Positions 1,492 through 30,944 are shown, counted from the first letter of the stretch. The stretch: 64,000 nt of DNA from an uncultured Pseudomonadota bacterium (GCA_963847705.1 CAWKBC010000034.1:64001-128000), one strand, 5' to 3'. Made by a program: numbers and translations. The notes: generated by a model not told the origin, from the sequence alone.

Positions 1492-3157
1492 GTGCTGACC
1501 CTGCTTCGCATCTCGGGCTTCGCGCTGATCGACGAGCTCGAGCTGCCGCTCGGACCTGGCCTCACCGCCGTGACGGGCGAGACGGGCGCCGGGAAGAGCA
1601 TCCTGGTCGACGCGCTGGGGCTGCTGCGGGGCGGGCGCGCCGGCGCCGACGTGATCCGCACCGGCCGCGACGAGGCGCGGGTGGAGGCGATCCTCGAGCT
1701 CCCCGCCGGCTCGGCGACGCGCGCGCGTCTGGTGGCGGACGGGCGGGAGGTCGAAGAGGGGCTGGTCGTGCGGCGGGTGATCGCGCGCGGGGGGCGCGGC
1801 CGCACGCACCTGGGCGGCGGGCTGGCGACGGCCGCCGACCTGGCATCGACGGTGGCGGGCCTCATCGACATCGCCTCGCAGCACGATCAACAGTCGCTGA
1901 CCGATCCGGAGAGCCAGCTGGCGATCCTGGACGCCTTCGCCGAGAACCAGCCGCTGCGCGACGAGATGACGGCGGCGTACGCGGCGCGGGCGGCGACGGC
2001 GGCGGCGCTGGCCTCGTTTTCGGCCGACGCGCGGGCGCGCAGCGAACGGGAAGATCTGTTGCGGTTTCAGCTGGCCGAGCTGGAGGCGGCGGGGCCGGCG
2101 CCTGGTGAGGACGGCGCGCTCGCCGCCGAGCGGGAGCGCCTCAAGGGGGCGGAAAAATTTCTGGCCGCGACCGCGCGCGGCGAGGAGACGCTGTACGCCG
2201 GCGACGGCGCCGTGGCGGAGCGCCTGGCCAGCGTGGCGCGGGAGCTGACGCCGCTGGCGGCGCTCGATCCCGCGCTCGGGCCGCTGGTCGAGCGGCTGGC
2301 CGACGCGCAGGCCGCGATCGAGGATGTCGCGCGCGAGCTCGGCCGCTATGTGCGGGGGATCCGCTCGGACCCGGCCCGACTCGAAGAGGTCGAAGAGCGG
2401 CTCTTCCTGCTGCAGAAGCTCTGCCGCAAGCACGGCGGGACGGTCGCCGATTCTGGCCGCCAAGCAATCGGCACTGCGCGCCGAGCTGGGCGAGCTCGGG
2501 TCCTTCGAAGAGGGGATGGCGGCGCGGCAGGCGGCGGCGAGCGCGGCCGAGGCGCGCGCCAGCGCGGCAGCGGAGGCGCTCAGCGCCTCGCGGCGGCAGG
2601 CGGCGGGCAGCCTGGAGAAGAAGGTCACCGCCGTCCTGCGCGAGCTCGGCTTTGCCTCGGCGCGTCTGCCGGTGGCCGTCGAAGCACGCGACCTCGGTCC
2701 GAACGGCGCCGACCGCGTCCGACTGCTGTTCGCCCCCAACCCCGGCGAGGAGGCGCGTCCGCTGGCCAAGATCGCCTCGGGGGGCGAGCTGTCGCGGGTC
2801 ATGCTGGCGGTCAAGCAGACGCTGGCGCGCACGGACGAGGTGCTGACCTACGTGTTCGACGAGGTCGACGCCGGGATCGGCGGCGGCACGGCCGAGATCG
2901 TCGGGCGTAAGCTGAAGCGCCTGGCGGCTGAGCGGCAGGTCATCGTCATCACGCACCTCCCCCAGGTCGCCGCCTTCGCCGACGCGCACGTGCGCGTCAC
3001 CAAGACGGCTGCGCGCGGCAAGACGCGCGTCGAGATCACCCGCCTCGACGACGCCGACCGCCCCGGGGAGATCGCGCGCATGCTGGCGGGCGCCGCCCCG
3101 TCGGCTCAGGCGACGGCCCACGCGGAAGAGATGCTCCGCAACGCTCGCGCCGACTAG
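1492..3157 (+). pseudogene. recN: DNA repair protein RecN, split by a +1 frameshift at about 2451 as assembled (possibly a sequence error)
   Basis: Walker A GETGAGKS in frame 1492; ASGGELSR, FDEVDAGIGG and ITHLPQVA in frame 2324..3157. Removing one T in GCCGATTCTGGCC restores ...VAD-LAAKQ. Confidence 0.9.
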
Positions 3158-17356: not shown

Positions 17357-18619
17357 CTACCGGCTGACTGACTGCTGCCATGAGACGACCTCGCCGTCGC
17401 GGTTGGCGACGAAGGAGACACCGCCGTCGTGGGAGATCACGATGGCCAGCCCCCGCGGGTGCTGGCGGACGAAGCGGTAGGCGGCCCGGTGGCGGGTGCC
17501 GACGTCCTCGACGGCGTTGACCTCGCGCCGCTGCCCTTCCGGGTCCAGCGCGCGCCAGATCTGCGGCGGCGCCGGGATCTCGCTCGACACCTCGGCCCCG
17601 AAGCCGAGCAGCGCGAACCCTTTGTCCAGGACCACCGCGCCGTCGATGGCGGCCAGGCCGGCGATCACCCGGCTCATCTCGAAGATCGACTGCTCCAGCT
17701 TGTCGAGATCCATGCTGGTGTCGCCCGCGAAGTCGGACCAGTCGACCGAGGCGTTCGTCGTCCCCGCCGCCAGACGATCGAGCATCTGCAGGAGCAGCGT
17801 TCGATAGCGGCGCGACGGTTCGTTCTGATCGAAGCGGTACTTGAGGTTCAGCCCTTGCAGCCCCGCGAAGGGCGCGCCCGGGAGCACGTCGGCGACCAGG
17901 ATCAGACCGCCATGGCGGGCGCCCAGGACCAGCTGGATCGCGCGCCGGAGCAGGTCCTGCCCGACGCGACCAACCAGCGACGGCTCGGCCGCCGTCGGAA
18001 CCGGCGCCTGGGCCTGCAGCGCGGCGTGCTCGCGGCGCACCTCCTCGCGCTCGTGGTCGAACATCGCCGGCAACCACTCGGAGTCGAACACGTCCATGAG
18101 CGCGTCGACCATCGCCCCCTGCTCGAGCCCGCCGATGAGCTTGCCGGCGCAGCGCACCGCGATGTGCCCCGGGCCGGTCACGTGAACGATCGGATCGAAC
18201 GTCCAGTTCGGCACCAGGACGCGACCGCCCCAGGTCGGCGCCAGCCAGGCCGGCCCCGAGTGCGCCAGCCCCCAGATGCGCAGCTTCCCTTCGAACGGAT
18301 AGACGCCGATCAGCGTCGTCTCGAACGGCGCCGACGGGCTGAGCTGGCGAAGCTCGTCGGCCGTCGCGGCGCGCGTGCGATCGAAGGCCAGGCGAAGGAC
18401 ACCCTGGTTCGGCGCGCCGCTGACGGGGAGCGCGTCGGGCGACATGATCAGCAAACGAAACCGCGTGGGCCGCGTCTCCTCGGCGGTCATCGAGGCGTGA
18501 AAGGCGATCGAGAGGGCCTCGCAGAGGAGATCGTGGGAGATGGTGAGCGTCCGACCCTCTGGCCAGTGCTCCCGGACGTAGCGCGCGAGGTCGGGGGGGT
18601 ATCGATATCCCGGCGTCAT
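17357..18619 (-). CDS. DisA_N/DAC-like diadenylate cyclase domain protein with N-terminal putative sensor (DACNV-like)
   Basis: C-terminal AAIDGAVVLD, GTRHRAAY, IVISHDG motifs; no TM segment. Confidence 0.8.
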   Translation of the reverse strand: MTPGYRYPPDLARYVREHWPEGRTLTISHDLLCEALSIAFHASMTAEETRPTRFRLLIMSPDALPVSGAPNQGVLRLAFDRTRAATADELRQLSPSAPFETTLIGVYPFEGKLRIWGLAHSGPAWLAPTWGGRVLVPNWTFDPIVHVTGPGHIAVRCAGKLIGGLEQGAMVDALMDVFDSEWLPAMFDHEREEVRREHAALQAQAPVPTAAEPSLVGRVGQDLLRRAIQLVLGARHGGLILVADVLPGAPFAGLQGLNLKYRFDQNEPSRRYRTLLLQMLDRLAAGTTNASVDWSDFAGDTSMDLDKLEQSIFEMSRVIAGLAAIDGAVVLDKGFALLGFGAEVSSEIPAPPQIWRALDPEGQRREVNAVEDVGTRHRAAYRFVRQHPRGLAIVISHDGGVSFVANRDGEVVSWQQSVSR

Positions 18620-21706: not shown

Positions 21707-23164
21707 TCAGAATCGAACCAAGAACTGCGCGGGCACCAGCAGGCCGGTCTGCCCGGAGCTGTAGACATAGAGCGCGCTGGTGTAGGGGCAGTTCTTGATC
21801 CCGATCGCCTCGACGCTGAGCCAGACCTGCCGGGTGGCAAAAGGGTACCAGTGGGCGCCGACCGCACCCTCGACGGCGGTGGCGAACGGACCTGCCACCA
21901 AGGAGCTCCGGAGGTACGGCTCCAATCTCTTTGGAAGGGCGAAGTATCCCAGCGAGGCGTCGAAGCCCCAGTCGAACATGCTGGTGATCGGCAGCGGCCC
22001 GTCGGCCTCGAAGTTGTCCAGCCAACGAAACGCGAACTCGGCGTTGAGCGCGAAGCCCCGATATTTGAGACCGGCGTCGACGGCGTAGAGGTAGTAGCTG
22101 GCCAGCGAGACGGTGACGTTGGGCGCCAGCGTGCCCGTTCCGAACAGCAGGGTGCCGTCCGATATGTACGTCGAGTTGTTCTCCGGGTTGGCCTCCGACA
22201 GATCGGAGAGGCGATCCTCGCGCGCGTAGGTGAAGGCGGTGCCGAGGCGCAAGGAGGGCGACTGGTGGTGCTCGTAGTCGTTCCAGGCCTTGCCGAAGCT
22301 GTTGATGTCGTACCAGAGCGAGACGGCGTAGGCGAACCGGTAGTCGATCCGCGAGGCGGCGATGTTGAGCGTGTTGAGCGAGTTGCCGATCATCGCGATG
22401 TAGTTGAGGCCGGGAAGCGGCTCGCCGGTGGCCCAGACGCCCTGGGTAAATCCGGGACGAAAGTAGTTCACCTCCATGCTGCGATCGGTGCCTGCAAAAT
22501 AGGGGTAGGTGCCGGTCATGGCGCGCAGGCTGGGCAACGAAAAGAAACCCGCCTGGAGCGCGAAGGCCTTGTGGAACCGATACCCGACAAACCCGGCCGC
22601 CGCGGCCGTCAGGTCAGCCGACGAGGTGTAGAGGATGATGTTGTACTCGAGCCGTTTGTCGAAGACGTAGCCCGAGAAGTAGAAGACGTCGCGCGTGAGC
22701 TGAAAGTCGTTGCGCTTGTTGACGTCCTTCACCTCGCCGAGGTGGGTGACGTAGGTCGGGTGCACCGCCAGCGTGTTGGTGTACTTGAACTGGGACACGT
22801 GATTGAGCTTCAGCAGATAGGGCAGCGGCGCCGAGTCCGGGCTGGAGACCAAGACGAACCCTTCGTCGTAGTGCGGTGGCTGCCAGATCCCGACCGGCTT
22901 GTTGACGTCGGCAGGCTTCTGCTCTGACGGCGCCGGCGAAGGCGCGGCCGGCAGTGCCTGCGTGGAGATGCCGGACGTCGTGGGCGAGGCGGGCGCCGCG
23001 GGCAACGGACTCGCCACCGGCGCGACGGGTCCATCCGCTGGCGCGCCAGCATCGGACGTCGCCGCCGGAGGGCTCGTCGGCCTACCTGCGTCGAGATCCC
23101 CCGGCGCTCCCGCTTGCGCCACCATCGCCGAGAGCAGCAGCGCGGCCCCCAACGCCGCGGTCAC
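21707..23164 (-). CDS. putative outer-membrane beta-barrel/porin
   Basis: GTG start overlaps the patatin stop (GTGA); signal peptide, Pro-rich linker, aromatic-rich strands, terminal Phe. Confidence 0.65.
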   Translation of the reverse strand: MTAALGAALLLSAMVAQAGAPGDLDAGRPTSPPAATSDAGAPADGPVAPVASPLPAAPASPTTSGISTQALPAAPSPAPSEQKPADVNKPVGIWQPPHYDEGFVLVSSPDSAPLPYLLKLNHVSQFKYTNTLAVHPTYVTHLGEVKDVNKRNDFQLTRDVFYFSGYVFDKRLEYNIILYTSSADLTAAAAGFVGYRFHKAFALQAGFFSLPSLRAMTGTYPYFAGTDRSMEVNYFRPGFTQGVWATGEPLPGLNYIAMIGNSLNTLNIAASRIDYRFAYAVSLWYDINSFGKAWNDYEHHQSPSLRLGTAFTYAREDRLSDLSEANPENNSTYISDGTLLFGTGTLAPNVTVSLASYYLYAVDAGLKYRGFALNAEFAFRWLDNFEADGPLPITSMFDWGFDASLGYFALPKRLEPYLRSSLVAGPFATAVEGAVGAHWYPFATRQVWLSVEAIGIKNCPYTSALYVYSSGQTGLLVPAQFLVRF

Positions 23165-24363
23165 GACGGCCGTCCCGAGCCGATCTGCGCGCCGTCGTCG
23201 GCCACCTCGTCCGCGAACGGTTGATCGAGCGGGAGCCCGACGCCGTCCATCTCCGCGAGGAAGGCGGTGGCCCGGGCCTCTCCGTCGGCGATCAACCGGT
23301 CGATGTGCGCGGGGAGGCGCGACATCTTGCTCGGGTAGTCCAGCGTCTCCTGCAGCTCCTGCGACATGCGGATGAAGCGCACGGTGATCCGCTCCGTCGT
23401 GTCGAGCCCGAAGCTGGTGCGGAAGCCAGGCGTGAGCGCGCCTTCTTTCAGCAGCATGTTCACCATGTCGATCACCTCCAGCTCGTGCTGGAGGCTCAGG
23501 TTTCCGGCCAGATCGTTGCGGCGATCGGAGATCTCGCTCGGTGCCTCGGGGACCCCCTGCCGCTTCGTGCGATTGACCTGAATGACCCAGATCTCGTCGG
23601 GGATCTTCCCCTTCCCCATCAGCGCCGCCCGCAAGAAGGAGATCACGGGTGGGTTCGAGGCGAAGATGCCGTCCCAGTAGGCGTGCCCTCCGATCTGCAC
23701 CGCCGGAAACAGGTTCGGGATCGCGGCCGAGGCGAGCACGGCCTCGACGGAGATCTCGCTCAGCGCGGAGCTGAAGATCTTGAAGCTCCCTTCGAGAATG
23801 TCCCCCGCCCCGAGCAGCAGCGTCGGGCTCTCCGAATCGACGAGCCCGGGGAGCGCCTGGAAGTCGATGTGCTTGGCCAGCAACGCGCGCAAATCTGTAA
23901 ACTCCTGACGACCGATCAGCAGCGAGGTTGCCCCCGCCCACAGCTGGAACTGCAGCGACGAGGGGCTCCTGGCGATGGTCGGCAAGAGCCCATGCTCGGC
24001 CAGCCGGACCATCTGGGTGCAGACCCCGTCGAGGAGGACCTCGCGCGGCGTCTGCGCCGACAGATCCTTCCAGCAGGCGATGATCCGATCTTCGATGGGC
24101 GTCCGATCGCCGCGCGCCCGCAGCAGAAGTCCCACCCAGGCCAGGGCCGCCGTGAGGGCGCCGCCCGAGGTTCCGCTCAGCCCGACGATCTTGAATCGAT
24201 CCTGAACTCCCCGCCCGAACAGGGTCTTGAGCGCGCCGGCGACGAAGGCGCACTGACTCCCCCCGCCCTGACAAGCGATGGCGATACGTTTGTTTCCCAC
24301 AGGTCTCCTCTGTAAGCCGTCGGATGGACCGTTCCCTTGTGGGGTCGCCACCCGCTCTGTCAA
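23161..24363 (-). CDS. patatin-like phospholipase/esterase
   Basis: CQGGGS oxyanion loop, GTSGG nucleophile, ASAAIP, WDG. Confidence 0.92.
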   Translation of the reverse strand: MTERVATPQGNGPSDGLQRRPVGNKRIAIACQGGGSQCAFVAGALKTLFGRGVQDRFKIVGLSGTSGGALTAALAWVGLLLRARGDRTPIEDRIIACWKDLSAQTPREVLLDGVCTQMVRLAEHGLLPTIARSPSSLQFQLWAGATSLLIGRQEFTDLRALLAKHIDFQALPGLVDSESPTLLLGAGDILEGSFKIFSSALSEISVEAVLASAAIPNLFPAVQIGGHAYWDGIFASNPPVISFLRAALMGKGKIPDEIWVIQVNRTKRQGVPEAPSEISDRRNDLAGNLSLQHELEVIDMVNMLLKEGALTPGFRTSFGLDTTERITVRFIRMSQELQETLDYPSKMSRLPAHIDRLIADGEARATAFLAEMDGVGLPLDQPFADEVADDGAQIGSGRPS

Positions 24364-24509: not shown

Positions 24510-24929
24510 ATGAGTGACCAAATGTTCGACACGTTTCGCAAGGCGTCCGAGTCCTGGGTGAAGATGCAGCAGGACCTGTTTCAAACCGGCGCGCCGGCGT
24601 CGTTTTTCACTCCGCCCCAGGGGGCGGGCGTCGCGCCCGAATGGGCCCGCAACGCCCAGAAGAAATGCATCGATCTGGCGGCGGAGATCCTGGAACGGCA
24701 GCGTGAGTCGGTCGACGCGCTGTTCAAGTCGTCGATCAACCTGCTGCAGCAGACATCGCAGATCTCCGAAGCGAAGTCGTCGGAGGACTATCGCCGCGCG
24801 GCGGAGGATCTCTGGCGCAAGTGGTTCGAGAGCGTCAAGAGCCACTCTGAGACCCAGTTCCGGGACGTTCAGACGTTCGCGGGGAAGTCGCTGGAGATCG
24901 TTCAAAGCGCGCAGAATGCGCAGGCCTGA
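24510..24929 (+). CDS. phasin-like helical protein (paralog 1)
   Basis: AAGGAGG RBS; all-helical Q/E/K-rich sequence, EAKSSED; first gene of the pha cluster; clearly paralogous to 25103..25513. Confidence 0.65.
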   Translation: MSDQMFDTFRKASESWVKMQQDLFQTGAPASFFTPPQGAGVAPEWARNAQKKCIDLAAEILERQRESVDALFKSSINLLQQTSQISEAKSSEDYRRAAEDLWRKWFESVKSHSETQFRDVQTFAGKSLEIVQSAQNAQA

Positions 24930-25003
24930 GGCCGCCTATCGGGCGGCACCTCGTCGGGGCATGGTTCGCTTCGCTCACCGTTCGCCTTTCGGCGACGCTC
25001 TCC
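24924..25003. repeat. dispersed palindromic (REP-like) element, copy 2 (inverted)
   Basis: Reverse complement GGAGAGCGTCGCCGAAAGGCGAACGGTGAGCGAAGCGAAC...GCCGCCCGATAGGCGGCCTCAGGC matches 3157-3242. Confidence 0.8.
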
Positions 25004-25102
25004 CAGGAAATCGGTAGTTCTCCCTAATTGCGGTCCCACTTCCTGCCCTTACCATCCGAGCCGCCAACGACGATCACCCACCGCAAACGAATCGGAGAGG
25101 CC

Positions 25103-25513
25103 ATGGACGACCAACTTTTCGACAGCTTCCGCAAAGCTTCGGAGTCCTCGCTGCACATGCAGCAGGAGATCCTGAAGCACTGGACCGAGCGCTGGGCCGC
25201 CGGCGCTCTCCAGACCCCGAACGCCTCCAGCGAGGCGAGTCAACGCGCTCAGAAACGCTGGCTGGCGCTGGGGATCGAGCTGCTCAACAAGCACCGGGCG
25301 GCGCTCGATGGAACGTACGCCGCCGGCATCCAGCTCATCGAGCGCTCCTTTGCCGCGGCGGAGGCCAGATCGCCCGAGGAGTACCGGCGCCTGACCGAGG
25401 AGCTCTGGCGCAAGTTGTTCGACACCTACAAGAGCCAGGCCGAAGCGCAGTTCGACGCCTTCAAGAACTGGTCCACCAAGTCGGCCGAAGCCGTTCAAGA
25501 TGCCCGAACGTAG
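25103..25513 (+). CDS. phasin-like helical protein (paralog 2)
   Basis: MDDQLFDSFRKASES..MQQ..EARSPEEYRR..EELWRK aligns with paralog 1. Confidence 0.65.
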   Translation: MDDQLFDSFRKASESSLHMQQEILKHWTERWAAGALQTPNASSEASQRAQKRWLALGIELLNKHRAALDGTYAAGIQLIERSFAAAEARSPEEYRRLTEELWRKLFDTYKSQAEAQFDAFKNWSTKSAEAVQDART

Positions 25514-25760
25514 CCACCCCGCTGCCTACGTCGAACAGTGGTTCGACTCGTGGCGCAACGCCAGCGCACTCGGGTGGGACTACCTGGAGACGCTGTGCGG
25601 CCTTCGCCCGCCGCAACGCCTGCGAAACCGCCTGCTCGCGGAGGCCAGGCAGACGGCGGCCGAGTACCTGAGGTCCCCCGCCTTCCTCGAATTGATGCGC
25701 GTGAACTTGAGCGCAATGACCATTTCCAGCCGTTTGATCCAGCCATTCCGAATCCACTAG
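25500..25760 (+). CDS. small protein, possible minimal PhaE-like synthase subunit
   Basis: 86 aa, overlaps the upstream stop; EYLRSPAFLELMR is reminiscent of PhaE-type helices; lies between phasins and phaB. Confidence 0.5.
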   Translation: MPERSHPAAYVEQWFDSWRNASALGWDYLETLCGLRPPQRLRNRLLAEARQTAAEYLRSPAFLELMRVNLSAMTISSRLIQPFRIH

Positions 25761-25770
25761 GAGTCTTTCC

Positions 25771-26562
25771 ATGACCGTCGCGTTTCGAGAAGCCGCATCG
25801 AACCTGCTTCCGATCTTCAGTGTGTTGGGGAAGAAGGCCTTCGTCACCGGGGGCTCGCGCGGCATAGGCCGGGCCTGCGCCCTGACCCTGGCCGCCGCCG
25901 GCGCCGACGTGGCCATCGGCTCGAGCGCCGCCGGCGTCGAGTCGGCCGAGGCGGTCTGCCGCGAGATCCGCGAGCTGGGACGGCGCGCCGACGCCTACCC
26001 CTGCGACGTGGGGACCCGCGGCGCGGTGAAGACGATGTGCGCCCGCGTGACCGAGGAGTTCGAGACCATCGACATCCTGGTGAACAACGCCGGCGTCACC
26101 AGAGATGGCCTCTTTCGCAAGATGGACCGCGAGGCCTGGGACACGGTGATCAACACCAACCTCAACAGCGTCTTCGAGATCACGCAAAACTTCATCGAGC
26201 CGATGGCCGCGCGCGGATGGGGGCGGGTCATCAACATCTCCAGCATCGTCGGCCAGATCGGCAACTTCGGTCAGGCCAACTACGCCGCCGCCAAGGCCGG
26301 GCTCATCGGGCTGACCAAGACGCTGGCCCGCGAGTACGCCCGCAAGGGCGTCACCGTGAACGCCATCGCGCCCGGCTTCGTCAAGACGCGCATGCTCGAC
26401 GGCGTCCCCGACAAGGCGCTGCAGTCGGTCCTCGACATCACGCCGGTGGGGCGGCTGGGGGAGCCGATGGAGATCGGGGCCAGCGTCCTCTACCTCGCTT
26501 CGCCGTCGGCCAGCTTCGTCACCGGTCACGTGCTGGACGTCAACGGCGGCATGGCGATGTAG
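25771..26562 (+). CDS. phaB: acetoacetyl-CoA reductase (SDR)
   Basis: TGGSRGIG, NNAGVTRD, GNFGQANYAAAKAG; adjacent to phaC. Confidence 0.85.
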   Translation: MTVAFREAASNLLPIFSVLGKKAFVTGGSRGIGRACALTLAAAGADVAIGSSAAGVESAEAVCREIRELGRRADAYPCDVGTRGAVKTMCARVTEEFETIDILVNNAGVTRDGLFRKMDREAWDTVINTNLNSVFEITQNFIEPMAARGWGRVINISSIVGQIGNFGQANYAAAKAGLIGLTKTLAREYARKGVTVNAIAPGFVKTRMLDGVPDKALQSVLDITPVGRLGEPMEIGASVLYLASPSASFVTGHVLDVNGGMAM

Positions 26563-26616
26563 CGACGGAACCATCGGGACGCACTCGGGCGAGGGGAAAG
26601 CCAGCTGGCGACGACG

Positions 26617-27771
26617 ATGGCGACGACGACGGCGACGACAGAGCCGACGGCGAAGGACGACCAGGGTCCGCCTCCGCTGTTCGCCGAACAGCGGAAGATG
26701 TGGAGTCGGCTGTGGAGCGTTCCCAGCGTCTTCCGGCAGGCGCGCGAGACGCGGGTCGGCACCTCCGCCGCGGAGGTGGTGCTCAGGGAGGGGACGCACA
26801 AGCTGCTCCACTACCGGCGGGAGACGCCGGCCAGCTACGCCGAGCCGGTGCTGTTCTGTTACGCGCTGGTCAACCGCCCTTACATCCTCGACCTGCAGCC
26901 GGACAAGAGCGTCGTTCAGCAGTACTTGAAGCAGGGCTTCGAGGTCTACCTGATCGACTGGGGCGTCCCCACCGACGCCGACCGCGGCCTCGGCCTCGAG
27001 CACTACGTCTGCGGATTTCTCCAGCGCGCGGTCGAGTGGATCCGCGAGCGCCAGGCGAGCGAGCGCCTGCATCTGCTCGGCTACTGCATGGGCGGGACGA
27101 TGGCCGCGCTCTTGACGGCGCTGCGCCCCGAGCTGGTCCGGTCGCTCACCTTGCTGGCGGCCCCCATCGACTTCGTGGGGCAGGAGGCGCTTCTCAATCT
27201 CTGGACCGACCGGAGCCACTTCGACGTCGACGCCCTGGTCGACGCCTACGGCAACTGCCCCGCCTGGTTTCTCCAGGCCTGCTTTCTCTTCATGAACCCC
27301 ATCGCCAACCTGATCGAAAAGAACCTCTCGTTCTACGAGCAGATGGACGATCCGCGCAGCATGACCAACCACTTCGCGCTCGAGAGCTGGGTCAACGACG
27401 GCATCCCCGTGGCCGGCGCGGCCTTTCGCGAGTTCGTCAAGAGCCTCTACCAGCGCAACCTGCTGGTGAAAGGCGAGCTGTCGCTGGGCGGCCGGCGGGT
27501 CGATCTCGCCCGCATCACCTGCCCGCTGCTGCTCTTGACCGCCAAGAACGATCACCTGGTCAACCCGGCGTCGACGGAAGGAATTCGCCCCCACGTCGGG
27601 ACGTCCGACATCGAATCGATGGAGATCGGCGCTGGCCACGTCGGCCTGGTGGTCAGCAGCCGTGCACACAAATCCTTCTGGCCTGCGGCGACGCGCTGGC
27701 TGGGCGACCGCTCGACACCGCTGCGCGGCGGCCGCGAACGCCACACGAACGCCAGCCAGACGAACACTTAG
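26617..27771 (+). CDS. phaC: class III PHA synthase subunit
   Basis: YALVNRPYILDLQP, IDWG, GYCMGG, AKNDHLV, GHVG; 384 aa, class III size. Confidence 0.92.
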   Translation: MATTTATTEPTAKDDQGPPPLFAEQRKMWSRLWSVPSVFRQARETRVGTSAAEVVLREGTHKLLHYRRETPASYAEPVLFCYALVNRPYILDLQPDKSVVQQYLKQGFEVYLIDWGVPTDADRGLGLEHYVCGFLQRAVEWIRERQASERLHLLGYCMGGTMAALLTALRPELVRSLTLLAAPIDFVGQEALLNLWTDRSHFDVDALVDAYGNCPAWFLQACFLFMNPIANLIEKNLSFYEQMDDPRSMTNHFALESWVNDGIPVAGAAFREFVKSLYQRNLLVKGELSLGGRRVDLARITCPLLLLTAKNDHLVNPASTEGIRPHVGTSDIESMEIGAGHVGLVVSSRAHKSFWPAATRWLGDRSTPLRGGRERHTNASQTNT

Positions 27772-27782
27772 GAGCATCAGCC

Positions 27783-28772
27783 ATGAGCATTCGGATTTCG
27801 GGCATCGGGGGGTACGTGCCAAGCAAGACGGTGACGAACCACGAGCTGGCGATGCGCATCGACACCTCGCACGAGTGGATCGCCGCCAAGACCGGGATCG
27901 TCGAGCGCCGGGTCTCGGACGAAAAGGAGGCGCCCAGCGACATGGGGTGTGAGGCGGCCCGGCGCTGCCTGGCCCACGCCGGAGTCGAGAAGTCGGAGGT
28001 CGACCTCATCGTGGTCGCCTGCGCCACCCCCGACCAGTCTCAGCCCGCCGTCGCCTGCATGGTCCAGGAGAAGCTGGGCGTGGCCGACCGCCAGTGTCCC
28101 GCGTTCGACGTGAACTCCGTCTGCGCCGGCTTCGTCTTTTCCCTCAACGTCGCGCAGAGCATGATGCTGACGGCGCCCACCAAGTATCGCCACGCGCTGG
28201 TGATCGGCACCGACGCCTTCTCCAAGATCATGAACTGGCACGATCGGCGGACCTGCGTCTTCTTCGGCGACGGCGCCGGGGCGGTGCTGCTGTCGCAGTC
28301 CGACGCGGGGCACGCCCGCATCCGGTTCCACCTGGGGAGCGACGGGCGCGGCAGCCGCCACATCGAGGTGCCGGGCGGCGGCACCCGGATGCCGATCAGC
28401 CCGGAGGTGCTGGAGAAGCGCCTCAACACCTTCGTCATGAACGGCCCCAAGGTCTGGGACTTCGCCGTCGACACAGTCCCGCGCGTCGTTCGTTCACTGC
28501 TGGCCGAGCACGACCTGACGCCCTCCGATCTCGACCTCATCGTCCTGCACCAGAGCAACCTCCGCATGCTGGAGGCGATCATGCGCTCGCTGGAGATCCC
28601 CATGGACCGGACGGTCACCACCGTCGAGACCTACGGCAACACCGCGGCGGCCAGCATCCCGTTGACGCTGCAGAAGGCTTCCCAGGCCGGGAAGCTGGTG
28701 CCGGGGTCGAAGGTCATGCTGTGCGGGTTCGGCGGCGGTCTCTCCTGGGGCGCGGCGCTGCTCGACTGGTGA
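27783..28772 (+). CDS. KAS III family condensing enzyme (FabH-like; candidate acetoacetyl-CoA synthase)
   Basis: Cys-His-Asn triad: FDVNSVCAG, LHQSN, YGNTAAAS; FGDGAG, FGGG. Confidence 0.9.
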   Translation: MSIRISGIGGYVPSKTVTNHELAMRIDTSHEWIAAKTGIVERRVSDEKEAPSDMGCEAARRCLAHAGVEKSEVDLIVVACATPDQSQPAVACMVQEKLGVADRQCPAFDVNSVCAGFVFSLNVAQSMMLTAPTKYRHALVIGTDAFSKIMNWHDRRTCVFFGDGAGAVLLSQSDAGHARIRFHLGSDGRGSRHIEVPGGGTRMPISPEVLEKRLNTFVMNGPKVWDFAVDTVPRVVRSLLAEHDLTPSDLDLIVLHQSNLRMLEAIMRSLEIPMDRTVTTVETYGNTAAASIPLTLQKASQAGKLVPGSKVMLCGFGGGLSWGAALLDW

Positions 28773-28783
28773 AGGAGGCCACC

Positions 28784-29542
28784 GTGCACAGCGTTCTCAT
28801 CACGGGCGCCGGCAGCGGGATCGGCGCCGGGCTGGCCACGGAGCTGGCCCGTGCCGGCCACCACCTCCTGGTGAGCGACCTCAACCTCGATGGCGCCGAA
28901 GCGGTGGCCGGTCGCATCCGCGCCGCCGGCGGTTCGGCCCAGGCGGTGCCGCTCGACGTGACCTCCGAGAAGAACGTCACCAGCGCGGTGGCCTCGTTTG
29001 CGCGGCCGGTCGACGTCCTCATCAACAACGCCGGCCTGCAGTTCGTCGCCCCGCTGGAAGAGTTTCCGCTCCCCCAGTGGGAGCACCTGATCCACGTCAT
29101 GTTGACCGGGGCCGTGGCGCTCACCCGCGCCGTGCTGCCGGGGATGCGCGCGCGCGGCTTCGGTCGCATCATCAACATGGGGAGCATTCACGCTCTGGTG
29201 GCCAGCCCCTTCAAGAGCGCCTACGTCGCCGCCAAGCACGCGCTGGTCGGGTTCTCCAAGGTCATCGCGCTCGAGACCGCCAACACGGACATCACGGTCA
29301 ACACGCTCTGTCCGAGCTACGTCAAGACGCCCCTGGTCGACAAGCAGATCGCCGATCAGGCGCGCATCCGGGGGATGCCGGAGTCGGAGGTGATCTCGCA
29401 GATCATGCTCAAACCGATGCCGAAGGGGGTCTTCATCGGCATCGACGAGCTGGCCGGCGCCACCAGCTTTCTCGTCTCACCGGCCGCGCGGAACATCACC
29501 GGACAGACGATTGTCATCGACGGAGGTTGGACCGTTCAATGA
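28784..29542 (+). CDS. bdhA: 3-hydroxybutyrate dehydrogenase
   Basis: GTG start with AAGGAGG RBS; NNAGLQFVAP, SIH.LVASPFKSAYVAAKH, CPSYVKTPLVDKQI. Confidence 0.92.
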   Translation: MHSVLITGAGSGIGAGLATELARAGHHLLVSDLNLDGAEAVAGRIRAAGGSAQAVPLDVTSEKNVTSAVASFARPVDVLINNAGLQFVAPLEEFPLPQWEHLIHVMLTGAVALTRAVLPGMRARGFGRIINMGSIHALVASPFKSAYVAAKHALVGFSKVIALETANTDITVNTLCPSYVKTPLVDKQIADQARIRGMPESEVISQIMLKPMPKGVFIGIDELAGATSFLVSPAARNITGQTIVIDGGWTVQ

Positions 29543-29649
29543 ACGCGGCAGCTCGACCGCAAATGTGCAATGTGGACGACACCCGGGTGATCGTTTGTGA
29601 AACTGCACTGCTGAGCCGCAGTTCTTAGAAGTCCTTCGGGGAAATCGCC

Positions 29650-29655
29650 TATAAT
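29650..29655 (+). promoter_or_regulatory. candidate sigma70 -10 box upstream of phaZ
   Basis: Perfect TATAAT in an AT-richer intergenic stretch about 40 nt before phaZ; no good -35 seen. Confidence 0.4.
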
Positions 29656-29693
29656 CCGTTTGTCGCAATTGCGCGGCAGAACGGATTACTCGA

Positions 29694-30944
29694 GTGCTGT
29701 ACCGACTCCACGAGTACAACCGCGCGCTGTTTGCGCCCGCGGTCGAGCTGGCTGAGGCCGGCGCCCGAATGTTCTCAGAACCAGGAAGCTGGCTGGCGCG
29801 GCTCCCCGGGGCCAGCAACGTCGCTGCCGGCTACGAGCTGCTCTACCGGCTCGGCAAGAGCTACGAAAAGCCAGCCTTCGGCATTCACGAGGTCACCGTG
29901 GGCGGCGCCCGGGTGGCGGTCATGGAGCAGACGGCGCTGGCGAAGCCGTTCTGCCGCCTCATCCGCTTCAAGCGCTACAGCGATCAGGGCGACGTCGTGG
30001 CCGAGCTCAAACGGGATCCGGCGGTCCTGGTGGTGGCCCCGCTCTCGGGTCACCACTCCACGCTCCTCCGCGACACCGTCCGCACCCTCCTCGTCGACCA
30101 CAAGGTCTACGTCACCGACTGGATCGACGCGCGTGACATCCCGGCCGACCGTGGCCCGTTCACGCTCGACGACTACGTCGGCTATATCCGCGAGTTCATC
30201 CGCCACATCGGCGCCGATCGCCTGCACGTGCTGGCGGTCTGTCAGCCGGCGGTGCCGGTGCTGGCGGCCACGGCCCTGATGGCAGCGGCCGACGAACCCC
30301 AGCCGCGCAGCCTCATCATGATGGGCGGGTCGATCGACGCCCGCCGCAGCCCCACGCGGGTCAACGAATTCGCCACCGGCCACCCGATGAGCTGGTTCGA
30401 GAGCAACCTCATTCACAAGGTGCCGGATCCCTATCCGGGGCGTGGCCGCCGGGTCTATCCGGGCTTCCTGCAGCACGCGGGCTTCATGGCGATGAACCCG
30501 GTGCGCCACATCGGCTCGCACTGGGACTTCTACCAGCACCTGATCGAGGGGGACCTCGCCAGCGCCGAGGAGCATCGCCGTTTCTACGACGAGTACAACG
30601 CCGTGCTCGACATGCCGGCCGAGTACTACCTGGACTGCATCCGCATCGTCTTCCAGCAGCATCTGCTGCCGCGCGGGCTCTGGCACGTCTCCGGCGAGCG
30701 GGTGGCGCCCGAGGCGATCACGCGCTCCTCGCTCCTGACCATCGAAGGGGAGCTGGACGACATCTCGGGCATCGGTCAGACGCGGGCGGCGCACGATCTC
30801 TGCGTCGGTATTCCCCCGGAGCGCAAGCACCACCTGACCGTCATGGGGGCCGGTCACTACGGTATCTTCAGCGGACGGCGCTGGCGCGAGACCATCTATC
30901 CTCAGGTGCGCGACTTCATCGCGACGGCCGACTTGGCGGTCTGA
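29694..30944 (+). CDS. phaZ: intracellular polyhydroxyalkanoate depolymerase
   Basis: VAPLSGHH.TLLR, VCQP, GRRVYPGFLQ, EGELDDISG.GQT, GHYGIFSGRRW. Confidence 0.95.
   Translation: MLYRLHEYNRALFAPAVELAEAGARMFSEPGSWLARLPGASNVAAGYELLYRLGKSYEKPAFGIHEVTVGGARVAVMEQTALAKPFCRLIRFKRYSDQGDVVAELKRDPAVLVVAPLSGHHSTLLRDTVRTLLVDHKVYVTDWIDARDIPADRGPFTLDDYVGYIREFIRHIGADRLHVLAVCQPAVPVLAATALMAAADEPQPRSLIMMGGSIDARRSPTRVNEFATGHPMSWFESNLIHKVPDPYPGRGRRVYPGFLQHAGFMAMNPVRHIGSHWDFYQHLIEGDLASAEEHRRFYDEYNAVLDMPAEYYLDCIRIVFQQHLLPRGLWHVSGERVAPEAITRSSLLTIEGELDDISGIGQTRAAHDLCVGIPPERKHHLTVMGAGHYGIFSGRRWRETIYPQVRDFIATADLAV

Follow-up and report, generated by a model that had tools for sequence, protein, structure and literature searches.

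Organization of the gene run

The 64,000-nt stretch of DNA analysed in this study (hereafter the window) originates from an uncultured Pseudomonadota bacterium (GCA_963847705.1 CAWKBC010000034.1:64001-128000), and positions are counted from its start. It contains eight genes on the plus strand in the order phasin-like, phasin-like, 86-aa open reading frame (ORF), phaB-like, phaC, β-ketoacyl-ACP synthase III (KAS III; ACP, acyl carrier protein), bdhA, and phaZ (Table 1). Our subject is the KAS III of this polyhydroxyalkanoate (PHA) cassette and its likely part in the synthesis of poly(3-hydroxybutyrate) (PHB). Canonical PHB synthesis begins with a thiolase (PhaA) and needs high acetyl-coenzyme A (CoA). 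No thiolase is encoded in the eight-gene run, where the sole Thiolase_N signal in a domain scan is KAS III itself. The phaC stop and the KAS III start are separated by 11 nt, as are KAS III and bdhA, and both gaps hold a purine-rich ribosome-binding-like site. The GC content at third codon positions is 0.84-0.94 for the eight genes. A sequence-only reading of this DNA, which had described a co-oriented, thiolase-free run with KAS III 11 nt past the phaC stop, was thus confirmed in every point and at its coordinates.

The gene labels given in that reading stood in part. PhaZ and BdhA pass NCBIfam cut-offs, whereas PhaC and both phasins lie under theirs and the name phaB comes from context. PhaC scores just below the cut-off of TIGR01836 (345.7 against 365.3), its lipase box reads GYCMGG, C157, D312 and H341 are invariant in 33 homologues, and its top PDB matches are PHA synthases. 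The reductase is under the cut-off of both the FabG model TIGR01830 (291.2 against 297.75) and the PhaB model TIGR01829 (281.8 against 302.1); because these scores are nearly equal, the label phaB rests on context, and a housekeeping fabG is encoded elsewhere in the genome. The two phasin-like proteins are 37.5% identical to each other, and 23 of 32 members of their family match Phasin_2 at E<=0.1 (best 2.6e-5), all below the cut-off. A promoter and terminator scan gave no promoters and 7 terminator-like sites against 3.4 expected, none of them informative. Two soil RNA runs contain only 6% of the words; short contigs of relatives span parts of several of the genes, KAS III among them, and were not counted as evidence, and none of those listed joins phaC to KAS III.

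Table 1. Features in and beside the PHA gene run of the window
Feature	Position	Strand	Remarks
Porin-like outer-membrane protein	21707..23050	-	Approximate start; without Pfam match; accompanies the cassette
Patatin-like hydrolase, candidate PHA depolymerase	23161..24363	-	PF01734 E 8.5e-16; divergent from operon
Phasin-like protein 1, 139 aa	24510..24929	+	Phasin_2 E 0.0015, below cut-off
Phasin-like protein 2, 136 aa	25103..25513	+	Phasin_2 E 7.4e-4, below cut-off
Conserved 86-aa ORF, no known family	25500..25760	+	Homologues aligned, 20 rows
PhaB/FabG-type 3-ketoacyl reductase, likely acetoacetyl-CoA reductase	25771..26562	+	NF009464 272.6>269
Class III-type PHA synthase PhaC, 384 aa	26617..27771	+	TIGR01836 E 2.7e-103; triad C157-D312-H341
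PHA-cluster KAS III, 329 aa	27783..28772	+	Triad C114-H256-N286; likely acetoacetyl-CoA-forming (predicted)
3-Hydroxybutyrate dehydrogenase BdhA, GTG start	28784..29542	+	TIGR01963 348.7>307.05
Intracellular PHB depolymerase PhaZ	29694..30944	+	TIGR01849 584>300.75; PF06850

Linkage of the KAS III family to pha genes

The family to which the KAS III can be assigned is a close one, with 64-100% identity among its members, other full-length relatives being at most 47% identical. The 120 best homologues of the window protein are 72-94% identical, and in a set of 1.84 billion 50%-cluster representatives, one full-length cluster plus fragments make up the family, with the next full-length relative at 47%. 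Members are labelled Polyangia/Polyangiaceae, Acidobacteriaceae/Acidobacteriota, or unclassified soil bins. The distribution is patchy, with the family present in one of 250 other genomes of a phylum sample and in 12 of 60 genomes of the same taxonomic family, which would fit a horizontally moved cassette.

We collected 100 family loci, 19 from a GTDB scan (excluding a degraded locus, L042), one from the phylum sample, and the 80 top-scoring of 216 metagenome matches; the 88 with at least 1 kb of flank were regarded as informative. A pha-type gene was found in 86 of these 88 and a core gene (phaB, phaC, phaZ or bdhA) in 80. Where the upstream flank measured 4 kb or more (38 loci), a phasin-like gene was present in 37, phaB in 34, and phaC in 33. 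The immediate upstream neighbour of KAS III was phaC in 50 and a patatin gene in 31 of the 100 loci, and bdhA followed directly in 62. Gene order is variable, as the patatin gene sometimes stands between phaC and KAS III and phaZ/bdhA are sometimes inverted. Queries for thiolase, acpP, fabD, fabF and plsX, which do match control loci, gave no match in the 100 family loci. In 24 full loci, mean identity was 80.5% for KAS III, 86% for phaB, 78% for bdhA, 78% for phaZ, and 72% for phaC. Since dozens of loci show this arrangement again, the gene run is more than a chance association.

The linkage also holds in the reverse direction, with a family KAS III at most 1.5 kb away in 18 of 18 loci whose PhaC is 59-90% identical, although some of these loci share genomes with the family-locus set. 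Among 20 genomes queried with both proteins, seven have both and 13 neither. The link to pha genes in related genomes, on which the sequence-only reading had staked its proposal, is therefore found from both sides. One genome has, besides an intact cassette, a second whole cassette that is heavily frameshifted (L042/L215, G251:C3:244000-256000), which may reflect decay or long-read error. Elsewhere, a different KAS III-like gene (35% identical) lies right after a distant class III phaC, which in turn follows an acyl-CoA-synthetase-like gene (L199:5257-7276, G210:C12), possibly an independent recruitment of a KAS III to a pha locus.

Relationship of KAS III to NphT7 and housekeeping FabH

NphT7 of Streptomyces sp. 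CL190 (EC 2.3.1.194) was defined as the last gene of a mevalonate cluster (PMC5509993). The window KAS III has pha genes and no mevalonate cluster as neighbours. Neither 120 homologues nor 10 clusters contained the CL190 sequence, and NphT7 is represented throughout by a Streptomyces plasmid KAS III with its 119 best homologues (76-87% identical; the NphT7-type set), the mevalonate context being checked for the stand-in alone, which ends an mvk-mvaD-pmk-fni-hmgR-hmgS cluster (L054). Two other top plasmid matches lie in polyketide synthase (PKS) and aminotransferase clusters.

In a FastTree phylogeny of 205 rows, with 11 representatives that were fragments or split, and a single short locus, dropped from the outgroups, the family (support 100) and an actinobacterial clade holding the NphT7-type enzymes (97) were joined at 88, and all 21 FabH proteins defined by context were on a different branch (91). 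In an IQ-TREE phylogeny of 34 rows picked from this set, the family, the NphT7-containing clade and six unlabelled proteins grouped at 91/88, below the tool's star, with housekeeping FabH on the opposite side of this branch (88-91 in other trees). Approximately unbiased (AU) tests, whose groups were named after the trees were seen, rejected a grouping of the family with E. coli or own-class FabH (p=0.0116) and did not reject one with the wider NphT7-containing clade (p=0.443). Thus, the family does not group with ACP-dependent FabH, the placement that the sequence-only reading had regarded as fatal to its proposal. The exact place of the family is uncertain because its branch is long (0.76). 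In profile scoring, KAS III reached 422 bits with the wider clade and 391 with FabH.

Some enzymes of the wider clade are encoded next to PKS and aminotransferase genes; a position near this clade therefore points to a role outside fatty acid synthesis but leaves the substrate unfixed. Wider-clade KAS III genes of Lentzea (L029) and of a Rhodococcus plasmid (L055) lie beside aminotransferase and acyl-CoA dehydrogenase genes, and the Lentzea protein has an MNGPKVWDFA stretch in common with the family.

Motifs and residues of KAS III

Residues were compared among 122 family members, 120 NphT7-type enzymes, and 33 FabH proteins defined by fab-gene neighbours. A structure model of KAS III was mediocre (predicted local distance difference test score, pLDDT, 64.9) and was set aside. 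The Cys-His-Asn triad (C114, H256, N286) is invariant in the 122 family members. W..KT[GA]I is present in 94 family members and 100 NphT7-type enzymes, TPD..QP..A..[VI]Q in 109 and 118, and AFDVN.VC in 119 and 100, and none of the three occurs in any of the 33 FabH proteins. A TVETYGNT-like motif is specific to the family (103/122, against 0/120 and 0/33). All four motifs quoted in the sequence-only reading as marks of NphT7 are present, and three do match NphT7-type enzymes and are absent from FabH, whereas TVETYGNT belongs to the family only.

Of three basic residues that dock ACP in FabH, the family has lost two and kept the equivalent of R249. The equivalent of E. coli K214 is Asp or Glu in 122/122 family members and basic in 31/33 FabH proteins, that of K257 is basic in 2/122 and 31/33, respectively, and the mean net charge over 10 positions of the docking patch is 0.08 in the family vs 2.91 in FabH. 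The equivalents of F213 and K214 have been described as conserved ACP-binding residues (PMC8036411). In the acyl pocket, Q87 and V113 agree with NphT7-type enzymes, all 120 of which have Gln87.

A possible partner of PhaC

Class III synthases require PhaE (PMC7137286). No PhaE was detected by PF09712 and a short-PhaE profile in the genome, which is 84.7% complete. The 86-aa ORF has no match in Pfam, NCBIfam, PDB or Atlas. Compared as a profile with PhaE, it gives a weak match (probability 4-9%), although the best segment hits the same stretch of PhaE in two comparisons; it beats shuffles at <=2 of 100 in only 3 of 8 PhaE proteins and is without the LPTR motif that follows the matching stretch in PhaE proteins. 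As a lead, it is possible that this ORF encodes a cut-down PhaE-like partner of PhaC. Phasin-like protein 1 matched a PhaE-domain cluster of the ESM Atlas at 0.92; profile comparison of the phasin-like family with PhaE gave a probability of 3%, so this match was not confirmed.

Distant relatives encode PhaE proteins of 93-127 aa that match only the C-terminus (PF09712 positions 230-306), at L203:7938-8219, L204:13240-13527, L205:7059-7352 and L202:10938-11321. Three of these four genes are upstream of an acyl-CoA-synthetase-like gene and a class III phaC, and several of the genomes have two phaC genes.

Flanking genes and the rest of the genome

The patatin gene is present in 46 of the 88 informative loci, and a patatin-type depolymerase, PhaZh1, is known in Haloferax (PMC7137286). 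The porin-like gene is present in 16 of the 88, where it is linked with a patatin gene; a low-confidence structure model of its product (pLDDT 43.6) matches porins (best E 1.5e-4), and our guess would be that it imports or exports 3-hydroxybutyrate oligomers.

The genome has 6.1 Mb, and the closest named homologues are labelled Polyangia. A housekeeping fabH, 39% identical to the window KAS III, lies on another contig (C32) in a plsX-fabH-fabD-fabG-acpP-fabF cluster; the window KAS III is therefore spare. A second family KAS III (72% identical) is found in a phasin-like - patatin - KAS III run without phaB or phaC (G000:C20:6436-8952, L007), and this run recurs in L026, L130, L147 and L285. 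Away from the cluster lies a second phaZ (72% identical; G000:C21:172234-173471, L291), which seems to be frameshifted close to the 3' end. Four acetyl-CoA carboxylase subunits, suggested by single motif matches, are presumably encoded at scattered sites. CoA-transferases are encoded, and no acetoacetate-CoA ligase was found above the cut-off in the genome.

Elsewhere in the window, the protein encoded at 17357-18619 (minus strand) has a DACNV sensor domain and, as a weak match, a diadenylate cyclase (DAC) domain. A recN-like gene, recognized by eye at 1492-3157 (plus strand), extends over two frames (1492-2910 and 2324-3157), a split that is probably an assembly frameshift.

Discussion

In this study, we found that a KAS III of a distinct family is encoded within a PHA gene cassette of soil bacteria. 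We consider it likely that this dedicated KAS III forms acetoacetyl-CoA out of acetyl-CoA plus malonyl-CoA and thereby feeds a PHB cassette without thiolase. An acetyl group would be transferred to Cys114, malonyl-CoA would be decarboxylated via His256 and Asn286, and acetoacetyl-CoA would be released, following the triad chemistry established for KAS III (PMC10054515). The PhaB-like enzyme would then reduce acetoacetyl-CoA to 3-hydroxybutyryl-CoA for polymerization by the class III PhaC, the phasin-like proteins would coat the granule, and PhaZ, the patatin and BdhA would mobilize the polymer. One ATP, spent by acetyl-CoA carboxylase, would thus bypass the thiolase step, which is uphill by +26 kJ/mol (bioRxiv 2023.03.14.532570). 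We infer CoA as the acceptor because the loci have no ACP genes, the basic patch is weakened, the family is placed apart from FabH, and PhaC requires CoA esters. Likewise, we infer the substrates, the direction of flux, and an activity of PhaC without a recognizable PhaE. In a broader sense, including variants that use ACP or other primers, it is very likely that KAS III supplies precursors of PHA monomers.

Several findings weigh against this reading. As to its relation to NphT7, AU tests rejected a single clade of the family with the mevalonate-cluster enzymes (p=0.000239), a profile of NphT7-type enzymes alone gave KAS III 304 bits, below FabH, and its top solved-structure matches are ordinary FabH. 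KAS III also passes the fabH model TIGR00747 (332.1>292.1), a broad subfamily model. AGGSR, found in 101/120 NphT7-type and 2/33 FabH proteins, is present in none of the 122 family members, which have GGGTR or AGGTR; the looser [AG]GG[ST]R covers 114/122 of the family, yet 6/33 FabH proteins too. At 21 columns that separate NphT7-type enzymes from FabH, the family is FabH-like at 11, NphT7-type at five and neither at five, as expected if NphT7-type enzymes are derived. The equivalent of R249 (R261) is Arg in 122/122 family members and 33/33 FabH but in 0/120 NphT7-type enzymes, and the absence of this ACP-binding arginine is the published explanation for the use of CoA by NphT7 and its lack of KAS III activity (PMC5432608). 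However, one ACP-binding KAS III carries Asn at 249, and the 213/214 equivalents are named as conserved contacts with ACP (PMC8036411), so no single residue decides between CoA and ACP. The acidic residue at 214 is also found in 10 of 14 wider-clade members and is therefore inherited rather than a PHB-specific change. Thus, NphT7-like holds for the side of the tree and the shared motifs, but not in the sense of an orthologue. Judged from its sequence, KAS III forms a lineage of its own close to the clade with NphT7 and is not NphT7 itself, though it likely works like it.

Other points on this side concern the cassette and the genome. The cassette has no carboxylase gene in the window, and the lack of a detectable PhaE counts here as well. 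Three thiolases are encoded elsewhere in the genome, two of them adjoining beta-oxidation genes; one of the three is of the acetyl-CoA acetyltransferase type and lies beside 3-hydroxyacyl-CoA dehydrogenase/crotonase genes, and thiolases were found in all five other family-bearing genomes checked; a thiolase route to PHB is therefore open. The family loci fall into 67 clusters at 90% and 32 at 80% identity and are kin of one mobile cassette, thus not independent events. Two family genes (L113, L156) have no pha neighbours, and at L282 phaB-phaC stand without an adjacent KAS III, the cassette being split there with the rest at L017 of the same genome. Finally, none of the regions around 11 distant class III phaC genes (33-42% identical) has a thiolase; they carry full or short PhaE genes, in one region a MaoC hydratase, and in several regions acyl-CoA-synthetase-like genes. 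Hence the absence of thiolase alone means little, and we rejected it as stand-alone evidence, as thiolase-free pha loci are common in the phylum. The distinctive feature of the cassette is the presence of KAS III, not the lack of phaA.

Among the alternatives, KAS III could feed PHA from fatty acid synthesis, either by converting malonyl-ACP to acetoacetyl-ACP for a FabG-like reductase or by moving 3-ketoacyl or 3-hydroxyacyl groups over to CoA from ACP (transacylation), as over-expressed FabH does in engineered E. coli, or both. The supply of monomers would then still be malonyl-derived and independent of thiolase, but dependent on ACP. The retained R249 and the score with the fabH model are consistent with this, as is the reductase, whose score is a little higher as FabG than as PhaB and whose identity is 47.5% with E. 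coli FabG and 45.9% with a thiolase-linked PhaB; moreover, FabH-mediated monomer supply has been reported (PMC8231600, PMC8357295, PMC11539682). Nevertheless, no acpP, fabD or phaG-like partner is present among the queried genes of the 100 loci (phaG itself was not queried), K214 is charge-reversed and K257 lost, KAS III groups away from housekeeping FabH, and PhaC is established to require CoA esters, which together make this route unlikely.

It is also conceivable that KAS III serves the re-use of PHB, cleaving or transferring acetoacetyl groups (to CoA or ACP) after PhaZ or patatin and BdhA have released acetoacetate, with synthesis proceeding via thiolase elsewhere. This would suit bdhA after and patatin before KAS III in many loci, the thiolases and CoA-transferases of the genome, and copies without phaB and phaC, that is, phasin-patatin-KAS III on the second contig (C20), L026, L130 and L147, and phasin-KAS III-bdhA-phaZ in L017 and L121. 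Three Acidobacteriaceae loci (L018, L019, L021) have phaC deleted or reduced to a remnant and a broken small ORF, with phaB, patatin and KAS III retained. In two of the three genomes, a further class III PhaC is encoded within or next to a cluster that contains thiolase (L245, L283), which fits KAS III and PhaB feeding another synthase but fits re-use as well; L245 also has phaR, phasin and short PhaE genes by its separate phaC-phaB-thiolase. On the other hand, all 18 close phaC loci carry a family KAS III, another PhaC is encoded in the genome in 4/5 phaC-free cases checked, the triad suits decarboxylative condensation, and NphT7 shows no thiolysis (PMC5509993). We therefore regard re-use as very unlikely, and less likely than a supply of monomer precursors.

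Alternatively, KAS III may condense a propionyl, butyryl or branched primer at the CoA level, giving 3-hydroxyvalerate or longer units of a copolymer, with 3-hydroxybutyrate made via thiolase. In E. coli FabH, chain length is limited by position 87 (PMC8231600), which is Gln instead of Phe in KAS III, and a relative with the same TPDxxQP and AFDVNxVC motifs adjoins type I PKS and 3-hydroxyacyl-CoA dehydrogenase genes. Yet Gln87 is just as invariant in the mevalonate-type enzymes, and BdhA and the TIGR01849-type PhaZ are of the PHB type, so that such primers seem very improbable too. That KAS III is a passenger, a spare fabH in a mobile cassette with no role in PHA metabolism, is highly improbable and again less likely than precursor supply: spread of one cassette among kin can yield high linkage without function and 2 of 88 loci stand alone, but KAS III stays where it is when the cassette is rearranged (by insertion or movement of patatin or inversion of phaZ/bdhA), shows roughly the conservation of the adjoining genes, and has an intact triad.

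The proposed malonyl-CoA route can be compared with known systems. KAS III resembles NphT7 in its triad (C115/H256/N286 in NphT7; PMC5432608), in the motifs KT[GA]I, TPDxxQP and AFDVNxVC, in its side of the 91/88 branch, and in a place within a pathway that starts from acetoacetyl-CoA without thiolase. It differs in being 39-45% identical to the NphT7 homologues and not their sister group, in retaining the ACP arginine, in having GGGTR/AGGTR instead of AGGSR, and in its PHA context in Polyangia and Acidobacteria, whereas NphT7 has a mevalonate context in Actinomycetota. With housekeeping FabH it shares the TIGR00747 match, the triad, W32, R151 and R249, but it lies outside a fab operon, has Asp or Glu for K214, Gln for F87 and Val for A111, and has lost K257. 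The engineered NphT7-PhaB-PhaC "malonyl-CoA shunt", which yields PHB in P. putida (PMC11539682), has the same three-step logic; that shunt is synthetic and uses the class I PhaC of C. necator, whereas the cassette described here is natural, has a class III PhaC, and includes degradation genes. Compared with class III PHA loci (phaE-phaC, with phaA/phaB or phaJ), it has the short PhaC with lipase box and triad and nearby phasins, PhaB, PhaZ, BdhA and patatin, but no detected PhaE, an 86-aa ORF in the run, and KAS III in place of thiolase. Two Acidobacteriaceae genomes carry both the KAS III cassette and canonical PhaE-phaC plus phaB-thiolase clusters.

In our literature search, mevalonate clusters and engineered PHB routes were the only settings in which NphT7 appeared, and FabH was encountered solely as a supplier of monomers that was engineered or proposed. 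No description of a KAS III occurring naturally within a pha operon was found in this mostly open literature, so that a prior description is possible. As a thiolase bypass in yeast, Streptomyces NphT7 limited the flux (PMC5432608).

More tentatively, there may be a widespread malonyl-CoA pathway to PHB in uncultured soil Polyangia and Acidobacteria, with a second family of acetoacetyl-CoA synthases that keeps the ACP arginine and would have become specific for CoA in a different way from NphT7, and with PhaE shrunk or replaced, its place now perhaps taken by the 86-aa protein or the phasin-like proteins. If the proposed pathway is true, bacteria themselves use ATP to drive a bypass around the thiolase step, and over a hundred new candidate acetoacetyl-CoA synthases would become available. 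The family would also test the rule that CoA use demands loss of the ACP arginine. Furthermore, genome surveys in which phaA or phaE serves as the mark of PHB capacity, or in which every KAS III is labelled fabH, would misread such soil genomes.

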